Shown one piece after another: positions 2 to 60,930 of a DNA stretch of 64,000 bases. Location: the NCBI GenBank assembly GCA_020060625.1, contig JAGUZU010000087.1, positions 8,500-72,499 on the forward strand, written 5' to 3'. The translations under genes and the position numbers were made by a program. The notes under the pieces are model-generated. The model worked only from the letters and a program-made list of their open reading frames with translations. It was not told where the DNA came from and made no database searches. Position 1 is the first letter of the stretch. The number at the start of each line of letters is the position of its first letter. Origin of the DNA: Anaerolineales bacterium. Lineage in GTDB: Bacteria > Chloroflexota > Anaerolineae > Anaerolineales > Villigracilaceae.

Positions 2-733
2 CAGTCTGCTCTTAACCCTGTCTTCCGTTCGGGGGATCAGATATCCGAAGTGCTGGGCATTCACCAGAAGTTTGGCAGGGAGGCGGGCAGGGTGCGCGCG
101 GTTGAACTTTTGAAGCAGGTGGGAATTCCCGACCCGGAGCGGCGCGCGGCTTCCTATCCTCATGAACTTTCGGGCGGTATGGCGCAGCGTGTGATGATCG
201 CCATGGCGCTTGCCTGCGTGCCGGACCTGCTTATTGCAGACGAACCCACCACCGCCCTGGACGTTACCATTCAGGCGCAGATTCTGGATCTGATGCGTGA
301 AATGCGCAGCCAACTCAGTTCGACCATGATTCTTATTACGCATGATCTTGGGGTGATCGCCGAAATGGCGGATCGCGTGGCGGTTATGTATGCCGGTGAG
401 ATCGTGGAGGAATCTGCTGTGGCTGCGCTCTTCGACAATGCCCTGCATCCGTACACGAAGGGATTGATCGGTTCTGTTCCCGTGCTGGGCGAGATCCGCG
501 AGCGGTTGGAGGTCATTCCGGGTTCGGTGCCGAACCTGATCAACCTGCCGAATGGCTGCCGCTTTGCCCCGCGCTGCGCGGCTCGCGTGGAACATGGGCT
601 GACGATCTGCACGGAACGCGATCCCGAATTGATCGAAATCGAGGAAGGTCACAAGGTTCGCTGCTGGCTTTATCAGGACGGGGAGGGTCATGCCGCGCCC
701 ATTAAACATGCCGGTCAATCCACAACGAAGTGA
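2..733 (+). CDS. Oligopeptide/dipeptide ABC transporter ATP-binding subunit (OppD/DppD-like), 5' end cut by window edge
   Basis: Frame stays open back to nt 2 (listed ORF 50..733 begins at an internal GTG). ABC signature ELSGGMAQR, Walker [14 protein letters not shown]-loop ITHDLGV, C-terminal oligopeptide-ABC tail HPYTKGL...CRFAPRC. Confidence 0.9.
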
Positions 734-5126: not shown

Positions 5127-6491
5127 ATGAAGAGTACCGCAATCCTTCTCGCCGCCGGGCAGGGGACGCGCATGAAATCATCCCTGCCAAAGGTGTTGCA
5201 TCCCATTGCGGGCAAGCCCATGATCTGGCATGCCCTGCGCGCGATCCAGCAATCCACCACCGAAAAACCCGTCGTGGTGGTCGGTCACGGCGCGGACGAG
5301 GTAAAAGCCTGGCTTGGCGAATCAGCCCAAACCGTCTTGCAGGAGCCGCAGCTTGGCACGGGACATGCCGTGATGCAAGCCGAGTCCTTGTTAAAGGGAA
5401 AGAACGATCTCGTCGTCGTCTGCTACAGCGACATGCCCCTCCTGCGCGGCGAGACCTTGCAGCAATTGGTGGAAACGCAGGAAAAGAACAGCGGACCCAT
5501 TTCGATGCTGACCGTCATTGCGGATGACCCGCGCGGGTTCGGGCGCGTCATCCGCAGGGACGACGGCTCGGTGGAAGCCATTGTGGAGGAATATGTCGCC
5601 ACACCCGAGCAGTTACAGGTCAAGGAACTGAACGTGGGCGGTTATTGTTTCGACGCGAACTGGCTCTGGGACGCCCTGCATCGCATCCCGAAAAATCCTC
5701 AAAAAGGCGAATATTATCTGACGGATACCGTCGAACTGGCGACCAGGGACGGCTTGTCCGTCCAAGCCAATGTGATGGACGATCTCGAAGAGACGATTGG
5801 AATCAACACCCGCGCGCATCTTGCGGAGGTGGAAGCCGCCATGCGCCGCCGCATCACTCAGGAACACATGCTCAATGGCGTGACGATGATGGATCCCGCC
5901 TCCACTTATATCGAAGTAGACGTGAAGATCGGCAGGGATACCATCCTCATGCCGAATACGTACCTGCACGGCAAGACCGAGATTGGCGAAGCCAACGTGA
6001 TCGGACCAAACACCATCATCCGCGATTCAAAGATCGGGAATCGCTGTAAGATACTCGCCTCGGTGATGGAAGGCGCGACGCTCGAAGACGATGTGGATAT
6101 GGGTCCGTTTGCGCGGCTGAGAAAGGGAGCGCATTTGGGCAGCCACGTCCGCATGGGGAATTTTGGCGAGGTAAAGGATTCGTACCTTGCCGAAGGCGTG
6201 AAAATGGGACATTTCTCGTACGTCGGCAACGCGCAAATCGGCGCGAATACCAACATCGGCGCGGGGACCATCACCTGCAATTATGACGGAGAAAAGAAGC
6301 ACAACACCGAGATCGGCGAAGATGTCTTCATCGGTTCGGATACCATGCTGGTCGCGCCGTTGAAGATCGGGGATGGCGCGCGCACGGGCGCGGGCGCAGT
6401 GGTGACAAAAAATGTGGCGGACGACACGCTTGTGGTCGGTATGCCCGCGCGCGCGATCAAGAAACTGGAACGAAAATCAAAAAAGAAATAG
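5127..6491 (+). CDS. glmU: Bifunctional UDP-N-acetylglucosamine pyrophosphorylase / glucosamine-1-phosphate N-acetyltransferase
   Basis: LAAGQGTRMKS nucleotidyltransferase motif and C-terminal left-handed beta-helix hexapeptide repeats. ATG at 5127 preceded by AGGAGA (listed ORF starts earlier at 5085). Confidence 0.93.
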   Translation: MKSTAILLAAGQGTRMKSSLPKVLHPIAGKPMIWHALRAIQQSTTEKPVVVVGHGADEVKAWLGESAQTVLQEPQLGTGHAVMQAESLLKGKNDLVVVCYSDMPLLRGETLQQLVETQEKNSGPISMLTVIADDPRGFGRVIRRDDGSVEAIVEEYVATPEQLQVKELNVGGYCFDANWLWDALHRIPKNPQKGEYYLTDTVELATRDGLSVQANVMDDLEETIGINTRAHLAEVEAAMRRRITQEHMLNGVTMMDPASTYIEVDVKIGRDTILMPNTYLHGKTEIGEANVIGPNTIIRDSKIGNRCKILASVMEGATLEDDVDMGPFARLRKGAHLGSHVRMGNFGEVKDSYLAEGVKMGHFSYVGNAQIGANTNIGAGTITCNYDGEKKHNTEIGEDVFIGSDTMLVAPLKIGDGARTGAGAVVTKNVADDTLVVGMPARAIKKLERKSKKK

Positions 6492-6498
6492 GCAGCCC

Positions 6499-6903
6499 AT
6501 GATCACCAAAGCAGAAAAGCAATCCCTGATAGACCTTGCCAACGAAGCCCGCCGCCGCGCGTATGTGCCTTATTCGCATTACCCTGTCGGCGCGGCGCTG
6601 CGGACGAAAAGCGGAAAACTTTACACGGGTGTCAATGTGGAAAACGCCGCCTACCCGCAGACAATGTGCGCCGAGCGTGTCGCTATTTTCAAAGCCGTTT
6701 CCGAAGGCGAAACTGAATTTGAAGTGATCTCCGTTGTCACCAAGAACGGCGGCTCGCCCTGCGGCGGATGCCGGCAGGTGTTGGCGGAATTCGGGCTGAA
6801 TACCATTGTCCTGATGGCAAATGAGGATGGGAAATTGGTGAAGGAAATGACCGTCAGCGAGTTGCTCCCTGAAGCGTTCACGCCAAAACATCTCATCAAG
6901 TAG
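6499..6903 (+). CDS. cdd: Cytidine deaminase
   Basis: Zinc-binding motifs CAERVAIFKAV and PCGGCRQVL. ATG at 6499 just after the glmU stop (listed ORF 6412 start overlaps glmU). Confidence 0.9.
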   Translation: MITKAEKQSLIDLANEARRRAYVPYSHYPVGAALRTKSGKLYTGVNVENAAYPQTMCAERVAIFKAVSEGETEFEVISVVTKNGGSPCGGCRQVLAEFGLNTIVLMANEDGKLVKEMTVSELLPEAFTPKHLIK

Positions 6904-39324: not shown

Positions 39325-41457
39325 ATGGAATTTATCACATCCCCTTCACAAAAATTTGACCTTCCCAAACGCATCGCGCGTTTGGGAGAACTTGCCACAA
39401 ATCTGTGGTGGACCTGGAACCCCGAAGCGGCGCGCCTGTTTGGGCGGCTCGACTATGACCTGTGGGAACGTCTTGGTCACAACCCCATCCGCCTGTTGAA
39501 TGAGATCGAACATGCGCGTTTGAAACAATCCGCCAAGGATGCGGATTATCTGGCATTGTATGACGCGGTCTTTGAAAGGTTCGATGCTTATTTCAAAAAG
39601 CAGGCATGGACGCAGAAGGCGCATCCCGAATTGAAAAACCCGGTCGCCTATTTTTCGATGGAGTACGGCTTGCATGAAACGCTTCCCATTTATTCGGGCG
39701 GGCTCGGCGTGCTTTCCGGCGACCACCTCAAGGAAGCCTCCGATCTTGGGCTGCCGCTGGTCGGCGTCGGCTTTATGTACGCGCAGGGATATTTCTCCCA
39801 GCGCATCAGCGAAGACGGCTGGCAGGAGGCGCTCAACAACTTCCTCACCTTCGATGACCTGCCCGTCGCGCTCGTTACCAAAGATGGCGAGCCTGTTGCC
39901 ATCGAAATCAATTTCCCCGACCGCGCAATCCGCGCCCAGATTTGGGAAGTGCGCGTCGGGCGGGTGCCGCTTTACCTGCTCGATTCGAACGTGGAAGGCA
40001 ACGACGAATACGACCGCCTGCTGACAGCGCGTTTGTACTGGTCTGACCTCGACCGCCGCATCATGCAGGAAATCCTTTTGGGGATCGGCGGAGTCCGCGC
40101 CCTGCGCGCGTTGGGATACGACCCCGCCGTCTGGCACATGAACGAGGGACACGCCTCCTTCCTGACCCTGGAGCGGATTCGTGAACTTGTGGCTGGCGGC
40201 AACACCTTTGCCGACGCCGCCAGGCAGACGCTTTCACAAAACGTCTTTACCACGCATACGCCCGTCCCGGCTGGCAATGACGAATTCCCGCTCTGGCTGG
40301 TGGAAAAATATCTCGCGAATTACTGGGGCGAACTTGGCATCACCCGCGAGGAATTCATGGAGGTTGCCAAACACAGCCATCCGCACGGCGAGACGTACTC
40401 CATGCCGATCCTTGCCTTGAAATTATCAGGCGGCAGCAACGCCGTCTCTGAACTGCATGGCGAAGTCTCGCGTGAGATGTGGAAATCCTTGTGGAGCGAC
40501 CGCCCTGTGAAGGACGTGCCGATTGATCACATCACCAACGGAGTCCACACCGCGAACTGGCTGGCGCGCCGCATGAACATCCTGCTGGAGAAATACCTCG
40601 GCGCGGACTGGTACGACAATCTGGACGACCCGAAGTTGATGCAGAAGCTCGATACCATTCCCGACGAGGAATTATGGAAGGTTCGCCTGCATCTCAAACG
40701 CAAGCTGGCGTTCTACCTGCGCGAGCGCGTCCGTGACCGCTGGACGCATGGCGGATTCCATCCCGTGCAGGTGGTCTCCTCCGGCGTGCTCATCAACCCC
40801 TACGCGCTGACCATCGGCTTTGCGCGCCGCTTCGCCACCTACAAACGCGCCAGCCTCGTCTTCTCGGATGTGGAACGCCTGCTGGAAATCATCAACCGCC
40901 CGAACATGCCTGTGCAGATCATCTTCGCAGGCAAGGCGCATCCCGCCGACGAGCCGGGCAAGCAGTTGATCCAGAAGGTCTATCGCACCGTCAAGAAAGC
41001 CGAAACGGGCGGACGCCTCGTCTTCCTCGAAGATTACGACATGAACCTTGCCCGTTACCTCGTGCAGGGCGTGGATGTGTGGATGAACACGCCGCGCCGT
41101 CCTTATGAAGCGAGCGGAACATCGGGGATGAAAGCTGCCATCAACGGCGCGCTGAACTTCTCCATTTTGGATGGCTGGTGGCGCGAAGCGTACAACGAGC
41201 GCAACGGCTGGGCGATTGGCGAAGAGAAACCATACGAATCCGCTGAAACACAGGATGCTGCCGATGCGGAAAGCCTGTATCGCGCGCTCGAACATGAGAT
41301 CATCCCGCTGTATTACGACCGGAACTCAAAAGAAATGCCCCTTGATTGGATCGCCCGCGCAAAGGACGCGATGAAGACGGTCATTCCGCAGTTTTCCACC
41401 CGCCGCATGGTCAAGGAATACGTGGAGAAGTTCTACGCGCCCGCGGCAAAGAAATAA
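39325..41457 (+). CDS. glgP: Alpha-glucan (glycogen/maltodextrin) phosphorylase, GT35
   Basis: N-terminal LATNLWWTWNPEA (DUF3417-type), GGLGVLSGDHLKEASDLGLP, PLP-lysine region EASGTSGMKAAINGALNFSILDGWW. Start probably ATG 39325 (listed 39295). Confidence 0.9.
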   Translation: MEFITSPSQKFDLPKRIARLGELATNLWWTWNPEAARLFGRLDYDLWERLGHNPIRLLNEIEHARLKQSAKDADYLALYDAVFERFDAYFKKQAWTQKAHPELKNPVAYFSMEYGLHETLPIYSGGLGVLSGDHLKEASDLGLPLVGVGFMYAQGYFSQRISEDGWQEALNNFLTFDDLPVALVTKDGEPVAIEINFPDRAIRAQIWEVRVGRVPLYLLDSNVEGNDEYDRLLTARLYWSDLDRRIMQEILLGIGGVRALRALGYDPAVWHMNEGHASFLTLERIRELVAGGNTFADAARQTLSQNVFTTHTPVPAGNDEFPLWLVEKYLANYWGELGITREEFMEVAKHSHPHGETYSMPILALKLSGGSNAVSELHGEVSREMWKSLWSDRPVKDVPIDHITNGVHTANWLARRMNILLEKYLGADWYDNLDDPKLMQKLDTIPDEELWKVRLHLKRKLAFYLRERVRDRWTHGGFHPVQVVSSGVLINPYALTIGFARRFATYKRASLVFSDVERLLEIINRPNMPVQIIFAGKAHPADEPGKQLIQKVYRTVKKAETGGRLVFLEDYDMNLARYLVQGVDVWMNTPRRPYEASGTSGMKAAINGALNFSILDGWWREAYNERNGWAIGEEKPYESAETQDAADAESLYRALEHEIIPLYYDRNSKEMPLDWIARAKDAMKTVIPQFSTRRMVKEYVEKFYAPAAKK

Positions 41458-41464
41458 AAGGATT

Positions 41465-41535
41465 CACCACAGAGGTCACGGAGTTCACAGAGAAAAAACC
41501 GTAAAAATCTCCGTGATCTCTGTGCGCTCTGTGGT
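41465..41535. repeat. Hairpin repeat, 'CACCACAGAG ... CTCTGTGGTG' family
   Basis: CACCACAGAGGTCACGGAG ... CTCCGTGATCTCTGTGCGCTCTGTGGT. Related copies at 59067-59130, variants at 58916-58971 and 48366-48427. Confidence 0.7.
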
Positions 41536-41547
41536 AAAAGAGAGTCT

Positions 41548-41892
41548 ATGTTGCCCGAAATCACAGTCACTGAACTTGCCGAAAAGCTCAAATCCGAAGA
41601 AAGATTCATCCTGCTGGATGTGCGCGAACTCGCAGAGTTGAATCATGCCAAAATCGAAGACACCAGGCTTGAGGTCGCGCCTTTGAGCCGGTTGGCGAGC
41701 GGGGGACCGGGCGCATTGCCCGAGTCGGTCAAAGCGCAGGAACTGCCTGTCTATATCATCTGTCATCACGGCAGCCGCAGTATGCAGGTGACCGTATGGC
41801 TGGCGCAGCAGGAATTTAAAAACGTCTTCAACGTGCGCGGGGGGATCGACGAATACGCGCGCAAAGTGGATTCTTCGGTAGGTATGTATTAA
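41548..41892 (+). CDS. Single-domain rhodanese sulfurtransferase
   Basis: Active-site loop ICHHGSRS and C-terminal GGIDEY. Confidence 0.85.
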   Translation: MLPEITVTELAEKLKSEERFILLDVRELAELNHAKIEDTRLEVAPLSRLASGGPGALPESVKAQELPVYIICHHGSRSMQVTVWLAQQEFKNVFNVRGGIDEYARKVDSSVGMY

Positions 41893-44017: not shown

Positions 44018-44842
44018 CTATTTATTGGCTTCGTTTCCCACCCCTACCTGAAACTGAACGATCCGATCCAGCCGAAACGTGCGTTCGGCTGCGCGGGTGT
44101 GGCAATAGGCTTGCAGGTAAATATAATCCGCCAAGCCGATCACTTCCTTCGGCGTGATCCAGCGTTCGGAAGTCTCGCCGTCCTTGTCCATGTATTTGAT
44201 GAACAGGCGTTTCCCGCTCGTAATGGCTTCGCTCAACTCGGTCGGCAGGTACACGCCTTCGGGCGGCCAGGCGGGCGAATTGTAAATGCCGATGAAATCC
44301 TCCAGCGACTTGCCGATGGACTTGAGCGAATCGGTCATGGCGAAGAACAGGTTCTTCATCGTGATCGCATCGGCAAGCGCCTGCGAGCCGTCCATGTTGG
44401 CAGTCACGTTGAAATCCCGCGCGAGATGTTTCAGGCTGTATGATGGCAGGTCGTAGAACTGGCGCGACATTAACAGTGTATCAATCAGGTTGGGGAATTC
44501 GACGGCGCGATTCAACTTGCGATATTCGTTATCGAGGAATTGGATATCGAACTTGGCGTTGTGACAGACGACCACCGCCTCATTTAACAACGGGTCGAGT
44601 TGCTCGGTGATCTCCGCAAACTTCGGCGCCGCTGACAGCTTTGACTCGTCCAAACCATTGACGTGAACCGCTGACGGCGAAAGAGTCCGCTCGGGGTTGA
44701 TGAGCAGGTCGAGGGTCCGTTTGACGCGTTTGCCTTCGGTCAGCACAACCGCGATCTGGCAGATGCGGTCTCCGAACCAGGGCGAAAGTCCGGTCGTTTC
44801 GATATCCAAAAAAGCGAAGCGGGCATTTGCGATGTTAAGCAT
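44018..44842 (-). CDS. DnaQ-like 3'-5' exonuclease fused to a C-terminal WYL domain
   Basis: Exo[10 protein letters not shown], Exo[15 protein letters not shown], ExoIII region [10 protein letters not shown]-terminal [24 protein letters not shown]...[20 protein letters not shown] is a WYL-type signature. Confidence 0.8.
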
Positions 44843-58851: not shown

Positions 58852-58915
58852 TTTTTCGATAATTCACCTAAGTTGTCACCTTCAAAGGGGTAATAGGAAA
58901 TTCGCCTGTTTTGAA

Positions 58916-58971
58916 CCGCCGAGGCGCAGAGGGCGCGGAGTTCTTCATGAATTTCTCTGCGACTCTGCGGT
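58916..58971. repeat. Hairpin repeat ACCGCcgagGCGCAGAG ... CTCTGCGactCTGCGGT
   Basis: Inverted arms read directly. Lies just after the kinase gene and may also act as its terminator. Confidence 0.55.
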
Positions 58972-58980
58972 AAAAAAGTA

Positions 58981-59008
58981 GATAAGGTAGCAACTTAGTA
59001 CCTTATCA
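58981..59008. repeat. Perfect 9-bp palindrome GATAAGGTA-n9-TACCTTATC. Its right arm is the left copy of a 14-nt inverted repeat bracketing the nuclease islet
   Basis: TTAGTACCTTATCA at 58995-59008 and its reverse complement at 60842-60855. GATAAGGTA also recurs directly at 60843-60851. Confidence 0.7.
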
Positions 59009-59066
59009 ATGAAATTCTTGTTTTTTGCCTGCACTGTGACGCAGGCACACGTGTGCAAGGTTTTTT

Positions 59067-59130
59067 CCACCACAGAGAACACGGAGATCACGGAGAAACC
59101 CTTTTTGAAATCTCTGTGCGCTCTGTGGTG
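59067..59130. repeat. Hairpin repeat of the CACCACAGAG family
   Basis: CCACCACAGAGAACACGGAGATCACGGAG ... TCTCTGTGCGCTCTGTGGTG. Confidence 0.7.
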
Positions 59131-59368
59131 AAATCTCTTTCGGCTTGTCCGAGTTAGGTTATTCCAATTAAAAATGCTGCCGCCGGGAAACCCAGCGGCA
59201 GCTTTCGCCAAAGGAGGAGACAGGGGTGAGCATTGGAGGTGTCTTCTTGCCGTCTCCTGATTCATGTTAATCCATGTTTCTCTTTTTCACCATGTCAAAT
59301 GTCACAGATTGAAAGTGATAATATTCACAAACTGTCACAGGATATTCAAAAAGTCTTTTGTCTTGAGG

Positions 59369-59986
59369 TTATTCAAGGTTTAACACAGTTTGACGTATTT
59401 CCTGCCAAAATTGCAAATGTTCTCTTTTGATACCGCTTGCACGCTGATATTCAAATTCAAGCCATTTGGTGTATTCGTCAATAATATCCTGGGGATTGCT
59501 TATTAAGCGCATGTAATATTTCAACGATGGAATAACGCCATTGACAATAATCTGGCATGAGTGAATTTTCTTGTATTTTTCTATTTCCTGCATAACTGCT
59601 TCGTGGTCGTCAAAATTCGGCTCGCTCGTTGTCAAAATGTAATAGCGGTCAATATCTGTATTTCTGATTTTTCGATAAGCCACGCCAACCATATCGGCGG
59701 TGATTGGCTTGTTATGTTTAACTTCAACCGATTCAAAGCAGGAATTATCAGCATTGTTCACATCAATATCACCCAGAGATTTTGATCTTGAATCGGGGCT
59801 TGTATGTGCTTCCAAGGGCGCGAGGAACTTCCCAGAGTATCTTCTGGATTCATTTACGAGAACAATATACATAGAATACATCGCCAGGACAAACAACTTT
59901 CTGCTGGCAAATTTAGCACATGAGAGATATTGAGATATCGCCTTCGTCGCATCGTCAGGATAAACTTTATTGAAGTTAATCTGCAT
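59369..59986 (-). CDS. PD-(D/E)xK-type nuclease candidate (205 aa)
   Basis: GDIDV ... ESVEVKH fits the D...(D/E)xK catalytic core. AT-rich. 11-nt overlap with the upstream PLD gene. Confidence 0.55.
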   Translation of the reverse strand: MQINFNKVYPDDATKAISQYLSCAKFASRKLFVLAMYSMYIVLVNESRRYSGKFLAPLEAHTSPDSRSKSLGDIDVNNADNSCFESVEVKHNKPITADMVGVAYRKIRNTDIDRYYILTTSEPNFDDHEAVMQEIEKYKKIHSCQIIVNGVIPSLKYYMRLISNPQDIIDEYTKWLEFEYQRASGIKREHLQFWQEIRQTVLNLE

Positions 59987-60842
59987 TGCTAAGTTTCCAT
60001 TTACTATCTACTCTCACAACCTTCCCATTCTCTTGTAAATACTCTTGCGCCCTGCGGACATAGTGCTTCCACTTTTTCCCATAATGTTGCCCGTTAATTA
60101 CCCGGTCAATAGAGTCGTCGCAAATGTCAGGATGAATCAATTGAACTTCTCTGTGTATCTGCCCCGTCGTGAGTCCGTCTTTATGTTTTTGAAGAACGAA
60201 CAAGATGGTGTCGCAAAATAAAGCGTTGACAGTTTTCCCTTTACGTATTCTATTGGCAAGTAAAACATCTTGTAATTCCTCTTGAGATTGTTGGGCTTTC
60301 CTTTGCAACGATTTAGTTGCATTGTTGACTTCAATTCCTTTCTTATTTTGCGCGAGTTCGTCAATTTTATTTTCAACAATATCCAGAAACTCGCGAGAAA
60401 CAACGCCGCCCAAATTCATATATGCATATATGTCGTCTAAAATTACCTGTACGGCGTTTCCTCCATTGATGACGACGCCATATTCATAATTTTTCCATAA
60501 CCCTCCATTTGTAAGGTTTGCCGACGTTACCAATGCAGTGGATTTATCAGCGACAAACACTTTCGCGTGCAAATAAGGCAGGCTAACTATAGACGTGGTC
60601 TGAAATTCATCAAGCAATAAACGCAGCGCTGAAGTATCAAGGCTTTTTGATAGGACATTTTCTACTGAGACATTCGTTAACACCGATACTTTTGTTATAG
60701 ATGGCGATTTTATTGCGATAAGCCAATCTATTGCCGCCTTTTTGATATATGGCGAAGCGATTATCAGGTCTGATTGACATTTGTCAATTAAACGCTGTAG
60801 ATGAGGCTGTATTGGGGATGAGATTAGCTGGAAATTTTCCAT
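59976..60842 (-). CDS. Single-HKD phospholipase-D-family nuclease fused to a C-terminal winged-helix (Mrr_N-like) domain
   Basis: HAKVFVADKSTALVTSAN fits HxK(x)4D(x)6(G/T)SxN. Central coiled coil. C-terminal LTTGQIHREV...WKHYVRRAQEYLQENGKV resembles restriction-system wHTH. Confidence 0.7.
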   Translation of the reverse strand: MENFQLISSPIQPHLQRLIDKCQSDLIIASPYIKKAAIDWLIAIKSPSITKVSVLTNVSVENVLSKSLDTSALRLLLDEFQTTSIVSLPYLHAKVFVADKSTALVTSANLTNGGLWKNYEYGVVINGGNAVQVILDDIYAYMNLGGVVSREFLDIVENKIDELAQNKKGIEVNNATKSLQRKAQQSQEELQDVLLANRIRKGKTVNALFCDTILFVLQKHKDGLTTGQIHREVQLIHPDICDDSIDRVINGQHYGKKWKHYVRRAQEYLQENGKVVRVDSKWKLSNAD

Positions 60843-60930
60843 GATAAGGTACTAAAGAAAGCCCCGCCCAACCCTCGATAAACAACTTCGAACTCGCGTC
60901 CGCCGGTGATGGAACAGGCAAAATAAACGT

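Follow-up and report, generated by a model that had tools for sequence, protein, structure and literature searches.

We analysed a 64,000-nucleotide stretch of the genome of an Anaerolineales bacterium (GenBank assembly GCA_020060625.1, contig JAGUZU010000087.1, positions 8,500 to 72,499), hereafter called the window, and describe an AT-rich islet in it that consists of two overlapping genes on the minus strand. Gene 1 encodes a nuclease that joins a phospholipase D (PLD) domain to a winged helix (PLD-wH). Gene 2 corresponds to the PD-(D/E)xK domain, with an EcoT38I fold, that forms the C-terminus of a ~358-aa SacI/EcoT38I-like type II restriction enzyme. We consider it reasonably probable that the islet is a type IV-like PLD-wH nuclease accompanied by a retained restriction-enzyme remnant.

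The islet is best read as a horizontally acquired operon. It has 40% GC, compared with 57% GC in its flanks. GC content is 0.38-0.42 across ~59200-60800 and 0.55-0.62 on both sides, with means of 0.396 for the cassette and 0.574 and 0.581 for the flanks. The two open reading frames (ORFs) share 11 nt (59976-59986; Table 1). A first-pass annotation made from the sequence alone had pointed out the overlapping genes, the AT-rich composition, and a row of hairpins at the left border, and ORF calling, the GC profile, and a hairpin scan bore out all three. It had also seen no methyltransferase, and our search of the 64-kb window for N6_N4-class methylases was likewise negative in every frame.

Results and Discussion

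Gene 2 is the catalytic half of a type II restriction enzyme

The start codon of gene 2 sits within the last codons of gene 1. Its product contains GDIDV...ESVEVKH, and the residues of the D...ExK motif (D73, E85, E88, and K90) are conserved. Comparison with Pfam, PADLOC, and NCBIfam gave zero matches, and sequence searches of the PDB returned nothing, whether they used gene 2, a profile of short and long forms, or a long-form profile. The PD-(D/E)xK core proposed in the first-pass annotation was upheld by structure comparison alone: the AlphaFold2 (AF2) model, with a predicted local distance difference test score (pLDDT) of 88.6, has as its top Foldseek match EcoT38I (7e8r/7edb; E=5e-7 to 9e-6, probability 1.0, template modelling (TM) score 0.56-0.64 on the query), followed by weaker matches to other PD-(D/E)xK nucleases.

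Homologues of gene 2 that are 300-358 aa long carry precomputed matches to PF09566 (RE_SacI_N), and gene 2 is 76-84% identical to the C-terminal part of these long proteins. The full-length homologues (~353-358 aa) are encoded directly 3' of a ~360-aa N6_N4 methylase at seven of the loci that we compared (L007-L010 and L099-L101), which are ordinary type II restriction-modification (R-M) operons. Gene 2 begins at about residue 150 of this long form. It comprises the C-terminal ~160 aa, preceded by a divergent N-terminus of ~45 aa that is common to short forms only, and it lacks both the RE_SacI_N domain (~150 aa in long forms) and the methylase of a SacI/EcoT38I-like system. The family is just distantly related to SacI proper, and RE_SacI in the Pfam copy used matches one of 11 long forms (E=0.003). 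Rather than a new nuclease, the 205-aa protein represents the nuclease portion of an ordinary type II enzyme. The first-pass annotation had named a match of this kind, with the methylase lying elsewhere, as a refutation of its reading, and this is essentially what we find, except that the methylase has been deleted.

Many SacI-like restriction-enzyme homologues are labelled "DNA (cytosine-5)-methyltransferase 1" by JGI, apparently an annotation error propagated by orthology. A contrasting route of inactivation is seen in the isolate genome of the cultured Thioflexithrix psekupsensis (L102, 2203-5501), where the restriction gene of a SacI-like R-M operon is split by an IS630-type transposase into pieces of 236 aa and 166 aa and the methylase (336 aa) is intact. 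P0035, from the cultured Thioflexithrix, was considered as a PLD partner and rejected as the product of this IS630-split restriction gene.

In sister cassettes, the PLD gene occupies a former methylase-restriction gene junction

Co-occurrence of the two genes in other genomes, which the first-pass annotation had named as a check, was found: the pair recurs with the same 11-nt overlap in at least five different and unrelated genomic contexts (L001, L003-L006, L103/L104, and all contigs of the window organism). In L001, a Chloroflexota metagenome-assembled genome (MAG), the cassette stands beside holA. In L103 (4037-5495) and L104 (869-2327), the cassette of PLD gene and remnant lies within a succinate dehydrogenase operon, between sdhC/D-like genes and sdhA and co-oriented with them, an arrangement seen in 23 contigs.

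Sister cassettes preserve both edges of the event that produced the pair. Just upstream of the PLD gene, L002-L005 have an ORF of 51-60 aa (..VDLVITSPPYFQQRE) that is the N-terminus of a SacI-type methylase and stops at or just past the SPPY motif. Since this methylase stub lies upstream of the PLD gene in sister cassettes, the PLD gene replaced a junction of methylase and restriction genes. When the intact operon of L099 was compared with the cassette by blastn, two arms of homology emerged. The left arm (L099 2618-2886, 81% identity, ~270 nt) covers upstream DNA and the first ~57 methylase codons, and the right arm (L099 4450-4924, 85% identity) covers the last ~475 nt of the restriction gene. 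Between the arms, ~1.56 kb (codons ~58-362 of the methylase together with codons 1-~150 of the restriction enzyme) gave way to a ~1.0-kb segment, in which the PLD gene is accompanied by 19 nt and a 132-nt junction. The methylase gene would thus have lost five-sixths of its length, from the 3' end, and the restriction gene 40%, from the 5' end.

The window arm is 83.3% identical to both the intact long gene of L099 and the short gene of L003. The junction codons that precede it are shared among short forms only, with 41-64% identity among these forms and 23-31% to long forms. A regex search near PLD genes did not find the motif I of a displaced methylase, and we therefore favour replacement over simple insertion. 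At the borders of the PLD genes in other loci, neither a conserved DNA motif nor terminal repeats were found.

Gene 1 is a single-HKD nuclease with a C-terminal winged helix

Pfam places one PLDc_2 domain at residues 16-134 of gene 1 (E=1.8e-12), with weaker matches to RE_NgoFVII (E=9e-7) and to the PLDc active-site motif (E=5e-5). Residues 92-109 read HAKVFVADKSTALVTSAN, within which H92, K94, and D99 of the HxK(x)4D motif, along with S107 and N109, are invariant across 44 homologues. The AF2 model generated with these homologues (pLDDT 91.4) has a PLD core followed by three long helices and, at the C-terminus, a winged helix. Its Foldseek matches are Nuc (1byr; E=3e-8, TM score 0.76 on the target), NucT, SauUSI, NgoAVII, and BfiI. 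The first-pass annotation had called gene 1 a single-HKD PLD-family nuclease, and Pfam and Foldseek agree, with a single HKD copy per chain and a PLD fold. The coiled coil that it had described corresponds to a helical linker, for which AF2 predicts helices at H128-144, H150-172, and H177-198.

The winged helix is modelled as three successive helices followed by a beta-hairpin (residues 205-284). It carries the motif IHPDICDD..DRVINGQHFGKKWKH, invariant across the 44 homologues, and the signature IHPDICDDSIDRVINGQHFGKKWKH, nearly invariant in the family. With hhalign, its profile aligned over its full extent with the N-terminal winged helix of EcoKMrr (residues 1-86), in 74 columns at 27% identity (E=6.6e-4, probability 27%). 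A DpnI-type winged helix was rejected, as hhalign against DpnI residues 172-254 gave 20 columns, E=0.087, and a probability of 0.7%.

The gene 1 family is large and uniform. At E<=1e-3, it comprises 1229 protein clusters, nearly all of 280-300 aa and with 35-45% identity across phyla, and it occurs in 386 species of GTDB, in bacteria as well as archaea. The order of PLD domain and then winged helix is constant throughout. The winged-helix subtype searched by itself gave 240 clusters (50% identity), in all of which it forms the C-terminal part of a protein of ~285 aa; fusion of this subtype to other types of nuclease was considered and rejected, because it was found in PLD proteins only.

In Nuc and BfiI, two chains pair their single HKD motifs into a metal-independent site that works through a phospho-histidine intermediate. 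By analogy, two chains of gene 1 would pair their HKD motifs into one metal-independent active site, and catalysis would pass through a phospho-histidine intermediate, as in Nuc/BfiI. The target DNA would be bound by the two C-terminal Mrr_N-like winged helices, carried on the helical linker.

Relation to known systems

The first-pass annotation did not recognise the two-gene operon as a known system. The PLD-wH architecture had already been described: such proteins were introduced in 2024 as putative type IV endonucleases dependent on N6-methyladenine (m6A) (Front Microbiol, PMC11037411). The 27 proteins of that study were selected by their DpnI-like winged helix, which reads Gm6ATC (PMC11037411). 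Two of them, Aba4572I from Anaerolineaceae and CbaI from Chloroflexi, proved toxic to E. coli and resisted purification; the toxicity of CbaI depended on Dam methylation, and Aba4572I behaved in the contrary way, being toxic in Dam- cells and less severely so in Dam+ cells (PMC11037411). The authors noted an amino-methylase directly beside Aba4572I and left it without explanation (PMC11037411). Aba4572I and CbaI resemble gene 1 in their N-terminal PLD nuclease and C-terminal winged helix, in their hosts (Anaerolineae/Chloroflexi), and in being stand-alone genes. Like members of the gene 1 family, they have an amino-methylase or restriction gene immediately upstream, and they have been proposed to be modification-dependent (type IV). 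The winged helices differ: the published one is DpnI-like, whereas that of gene 1 shows no DpnI similarity and looks Mrr_N-like. Neither truncation of the neighbouring methylase nor a restriction-enzyme remnant was reported for the 2024 set (PMC11037411).

Other relatives share parts of the design. EcoKMrr, which restricts methylated DNA, combines a nuclease with an Mrr_N-type winged helix, which that of gene 1 may resemble, and likewise has no methylase, but its winged helix is N-terminal and its nuclease is of the PD-(D/E)xK type (Mrr_cat), whereas gene 1 has the reverse order and a PLD nuclease. In BfiI and NgoAVII/NgoFVII, the N-terminus is likewise a single-HKD PLD domain and DNA is bound by a C-terminal domain, and 2c1l and 4rct are structural matches of gene 1. 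Their DNA-binding domain is of the B3-like type, however, and these enzymes cleave unmethylated sites and come with cognate methylases. DrmC of DISARM shares the PLD domain, and PADLOC DrmC models match gene 1 at E=3e-16; in PADLOC and NCBIfam alike, gene 1 matches no models other than those of DrmC-type PLD proteins. DrmC/DISARM identity was rejected, as the match is confined to the PLD domain, the NCBIfam NF038319 score of 53.4 bits falls far short of the cut-off of 133, and drmA, drmB, and other DISARM genes are not nearby.

PLD-wH genes recurrently abut truncated methylase and restriction genes

We surveyed 80 genome loci with PLD-wH genes by ORF calling, local hidden Markov models, and Pfam spot checks. 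About 27 of the 80 genes abut truncated amino-methylase genes. In 19 loci, an N6_N4 fragment lies immediately upstream on the same strand, and none of the 19 fragments reaches S-adenosylmethionine (AdoMet) motif I. The L034 fragment, which spans Pfam positions 1-188 of 221, terminates in "..GDVVLD|YWRDKYAI*"; that of L057 spans positions 1-134, and that of L076 is frameshifted. N-terminal methylase fragments are convergent with the PLD gene in three loci, and C-terminal fragments lie directly downstream in L039 (Pfam 172-217 of 221) and L063 (161-217 of 221), with a further downstream fragment, a weak match, in L071. A second methylase class is represented in L081, where a truncated Dam-class fragment (MethyltransfD12 positions 1-88 of 253) lies directly upstream of the PLD-wH gene. 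The three non-abutting methylases in the 80 loci are all full length.

Truncated restriction genes recur on the downstream side. Eleven loci have a downstream MTaX1-HNH_2 restriction-type gene. Scans of two members, of 249 and 269 aa, showed that their MTaX1 domain lacks the first 40-48 model positions; shorter MTaX1-HNH members are further eroded. A gene 2-type partner is carried by ~5 of the 80 loci, and the PLD tree has such SacI-C-type partners in three separate positions: in the window clade, at L016, and at L054. Taken together, the PLD-wH gene adjoins a truncated methylase (of two classes) or an N-truncated restriction gene (of at least two families) in ~30-40% of the 80 loci. To our knowledge of the literature searched, this recurring link of PLD-wH genes to truncated amino-methylases and N-truncated restriction genes has not been reported.

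Other clades have different neighbours. A 92-aa family overlaps or immediately follows the PLD stop codon in 13 loci that belong to one large clade, and a small PLD clade has a 70-aa Zn-ribbon partner. The 92-aa family (L031 6834-7112 and 12 other loci; ..FILHDVIESKRYS..LIEG..) has no Pfam match and is translationally coupled; a restriction-enzyme fragment was rejected as its identity, since all 46 homologues measure 79-104 aa. L021, L022, L026, and L037 (~5980-6850; Chloroflexota MAGs) have a solitary PLD-wH gene between an rsgA-like GTPase gene and holB, without R-M remnants. The GC content of the cassette is 10-20 points below that of its flanks in nearly every host, and 4 points below in L057.

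Two further arrangements were seen along the way. In L081 (5300-7537), the protein downstream of the PLD-wH gene, of 225 aa, has a layout like that of the SacI-C remnant (..LPFLIVAAAY..EMKNK..YIFIST..) and is missed by the A1 profile. In L063, L077, and L079, a ~460-500-aa protein with a C-terminal Mrr_cat domain is encoded immediately upstream of the PLD-wH gene, and L067 has a 167-aa fragment in the same position; the arrangement recalls the "restriction endonuclease" reported next to CbaI.

Proposed methylation dependence of gene 1

There is no protecting methylase with gene 1, and its relatives adjoin destroyed amino-methylase genes; gene 1 is therefore most likely modification-dependent (type IV-like), as judged from sequence and genomic context. 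The enzyme would cut DNA that bears foreign adenine or amino methylation and spare the unmethylated host chromosome. Of the two functions that the first-pass annotation had suggested for the pair, the type IV-like one may stand for gene 1. The association of PLD-wH genes with truncated methylases is compatible with known epigenetic conflict: work on McrBC (PMC2614495, PMC2993543) and a case in Pectobacterium (PMC8989522) describe a methyl-dependent nuclease and an incoming or resident methylase as mutually exclusive, one of them being lost. The difference from these cases is that the PLD-wH gene physically occupies the deleted junction of methylase and restriction genes, and does so repeatedly and in several unrelated R-M families.

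Gene 2 is probably maintained in the window lineage

Gene 2 has evolved under purifying selection, with dN/dS of 0.08-0.13 at dS 1.2-1.9 (window, L003, and L002), compared with 0.09-0.11 for the PLD gene and 0.08 for intact restriction genes. The junction codons give 0.18-0.47, though they are present in short forms only, and the overlapping ATG of gene 2 is conserved in diverged copies. We propose that translation of gene 2 is coupled to that of gene 1, that purifying selection has preserved gene 2 in the window lineage, and that its product is probably an accessory nuclease or a modulating subunit of the PLD-wH enzyme.

One alternative, which we regard as rather unlikely, is that gene 2 is a functionless relic beside a PLD-wH nuclease that works alone, its ORF being young or refreshed by recombination with intact restriction genes. 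Short and long forms do interleave in the tree of the shared region, and particular short and long forms have derived C-termini in common (P0011 and P0015 both end in "EIRQSL"). The DNA identity of the arm does not follow that of the PLD gene: the L003 arm is 85% identical to the intact L099 gene and 68% identical to the short L103 gene, and the PLD genes are 73-80% identical. Because arm identity does not track the PLD gene, part of the constraint on gene 2 may be inherited through recombination. Gene 2 has also been lost or has decayed in several lineages. However, ORF, overlapping start, and catalytic residues have all been preserved over the divergence given above for the window, L003, and L002, the junction codons, although confined to short forms, still have dN/dS <1, and the methylase stub decays by contrast, from 60 aa to 51 aa to absent.

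Several observations weigh against our preferred reading of a type IV-like nuclease with a retained remnant. As regards gene 2, its low dN/dS could be partly inherited from intact restriction genes via recombination. L011, which is nested in the window clade with 72% PLD identity, has no gene 2; in L103 (P0029), gene 2 is uncoupled, 164 aa long, and carries E88A; and catalytic residues have been lost in L013, P0023, and P0028. The window itself retains the right arm only (59806-59356, 84%), the methylase stub being absent. As regards gene 1, two or three loci have an intact amino-methylase 0.5-1.3 kb from the PLD-wH gene. The Mrr-like winged helix named in the first-pass annotation draws weak support from the EcoKMrr alignment, but Pfam Mrr_N (PF14338) matches two of 20 family members, below threshold (best E=0.0012), and misses the window protein. 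There is no detectable similarity to the m6A-reading winged helix of DpnI either, and gene 1 is likened to Aba4572I/CbaI by architecture, not by sequence.

In L013 (681-3192), the PLD-wH gene is followed by a degenerate 205-aa SacI-C remnant, in which GDIDV has become EGLVV and EVK has become VVR, and then by a SacI-like restriction gene of 327 aa, which is truncated at its N-terminus and has its motif intact. The 7.5-kb contig piece showed no methylase.

The first-pass annotation had proposed a candidate stand-alone defence system. In an obligate version of it, which would be new, the two nucleases form one complex and both are needed, for example one per strand. This is less probable still than the relic. 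In its favour, the overlap and pairing are conserved across the contexts listed above, purifying selection acts on each of the two genes, and the window copy of gene 2 has kept its catalytic residues. SacI-C-type partners are found at three separate positions of the PLD tree, and other clades have a coupled partner of their own, such as the 92-aa family with its 13 loci. An obligate role is contradicted by the scarcity of the partner (~5 of 80 loci), by its absence from L011 inside the window clade, and by its degeneration in L013, L103 (P0029), P0023, and P0028, and the partner can be shown to have originated as a by-product when an R-M system was replaced. As gene 2 is lost or degenerate in close relatives, any role that it has would be dispensable. 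Judged by these sequence comparisons, gene 2 is a retained remnant, probably functional in the window and dispensable for the family.

A toxin-immunity or abortive-infection pair, in which the toxic PLD-wH nuclease is checked by its coupled downstream product (that of gene 2 in the window, a 92-aa or Zn-ribbon protein elsewhere in the family), seems to us very improbable. Published PLD-wH genes were toxic and not expressible in E. coli, Aba4572I even in dam- cells, and the downstream partners are translationally coupled yet vary between clades. Many loci have no partner, however, including those with the PLD gene alone between rsgA and holB (L021, L022, L026, and L037), a catalytically intact nuclease domain would make an odd antitoxin, and the family offered zero evidence in favour.

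Possible spread by displacement of R-M systems

The recurring association suggests, without proving it, that PLD-wH genes spread by homologous replacement of R-M junctions. In its full form, which we put forward tentatively and hold to be the less likely case, PLD-wH genes are R-M-displacing cassettes that spread by homologous replacement of type II methylase-restriction gene junctions. The truncated methylase and restriction genes would act as homology arms, and the host amino-methylase, which would make the nuclease's own targets, would be destroyed in the same step. Gene 2 might poison residual restriction-enzyme dimers and so blunt post-segregational killing; alternatively, it might have been recruited as a second nuclease. 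The abutting truncated genes counted in our survey favour this model, as do the order of genes in L013, where a PLD gene and an old remnant precede a second, N-truncated restriction gene, and the phylogeny of gene 2, which is mosaic relative to intact restriction genes.

If PLD-wH enzymes are methyl-dependent, these loci would show directly, at the level of the genome, that type IV nucleases and R-M systems are in conflict, and that the conflict was settled by physically replacing the methylase, not by co-avoidance alone. This would also account for the puzzle left in 2024, an amino-methylase beside a nuclease that should attack its product; the neighbouring methylases are truncated in the loci that we examined. 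The selected catalytic half of a restriction enzyme would be a rare and datable case of a defence-gene fragment kept or exapted after the destruction of its system. On the practical side, coupled downstream genes (gene 2 or the 92-aa family) may be needed to express the so-far-intractable PLD-wH enzymes.

Borders and surroundings of the islet

The hairpins at the left border lie at 58909-58977, 58982-59008, 59065-59133, and 59173-59205. They were considered as cassette ends and rejected, as one is a host repeat resembling a repetitive extragenic palindrome (REP) and one is a terminator. Because the REP-like hairpin has a near-identical copy elsewhere in the window, it belongs to the host genome, outside the insert. 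The terminator-like hairpin lies 165 nt past the stop codon of gene 2 and closes the two-gene operon. Rfam matches in the islet were at chance level and nothing more.

Table 1. Features of the islet and its borders, in window coordinates
Feature	Position	Strand	Basis or remark
Gene 1, PLD-wH nuclease, 288 aa	59976..60842	-	Pfam, AF2, Foldseek
HKD/PLD domain	residues ~1-145, nt ~60408-60842	-	gene 1
Three-helix linker	residues ~146-199	-	gene 1
C-terminal winged helix	residues 200-288, nt 59979-60245	-	gene 1
Gene 2, PD-(D/E)xK catalytic-domain protein, 205 aa	59369..59986	-	homologues, AF2, Foldseek
Junction segment, gene 2 codons 1-47	59846..59986	-	blastn breakpoint; without DNA homology to the closest intact restriction gene
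R-M-derived arm	59356..59806	-	84% identical (blastn) to L099 4487-4937, the 3' end of the intact restriction gene
Intrinsic-terminator-like hairpin	59176..59202	-	12-pair stem (10 GC pairs), loop 3, then ATTTTTAATT
REP-like hairpin, host	59040-59140	.	near-identical copy at 41440-41560
Inverted repeat bracketing the islet, left arm	58995..59014	.	18/20 complementary to 60836-60855
Inverted repeat bracketing the islet, right arm	60836..60855	.	overlaps the gene 1 start codon

The 20-nt inverted repeat that brackets the islet has a perfect 14-nt core, TTAGTACCTTATCA, of which there are just two copies in 64 kb compared with 0.08 expected. Among all the loci fetched, it is confined to contigs of the same organism. 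Its left arm is half of a hairpin with a 9-bp stem (58982-59008), and the other half of that hairpin (GATAAGGTA) is a direct repeat of the right border.

Searches for phage or plasmid origin found zero relatives in IMG/VR or PLSDB. An empty site was not found among 13 contigs with the identical flanking 202-aa protein: where long enough, all carry the cassette. The neighbours are housekeeping genes (a glycosyltransferase, a response regulator, a histidine kinase, a translin-like protein, DUF3467, and SSB), so that the islet lies outside any defence island, contrary to the association with such islands considered in the first-pass annotation.

The REP-like palindrome (CACCACAGAG..CACGGAG..ATCTCTGTGCGCTCTGTGGT.AAA) is repeated in intergenic host DNA at 41440-41560, at 59040-59140, and in weaker form at 58890-58995. 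CCRCAGAG has 10 copies in the window compared with 3.5 expected. About 15 kb from the islet, the minus strand at 44018-44842 encodes a 274-aa RNase_T-family exonuclease fused to a C-terminal WYL domain.

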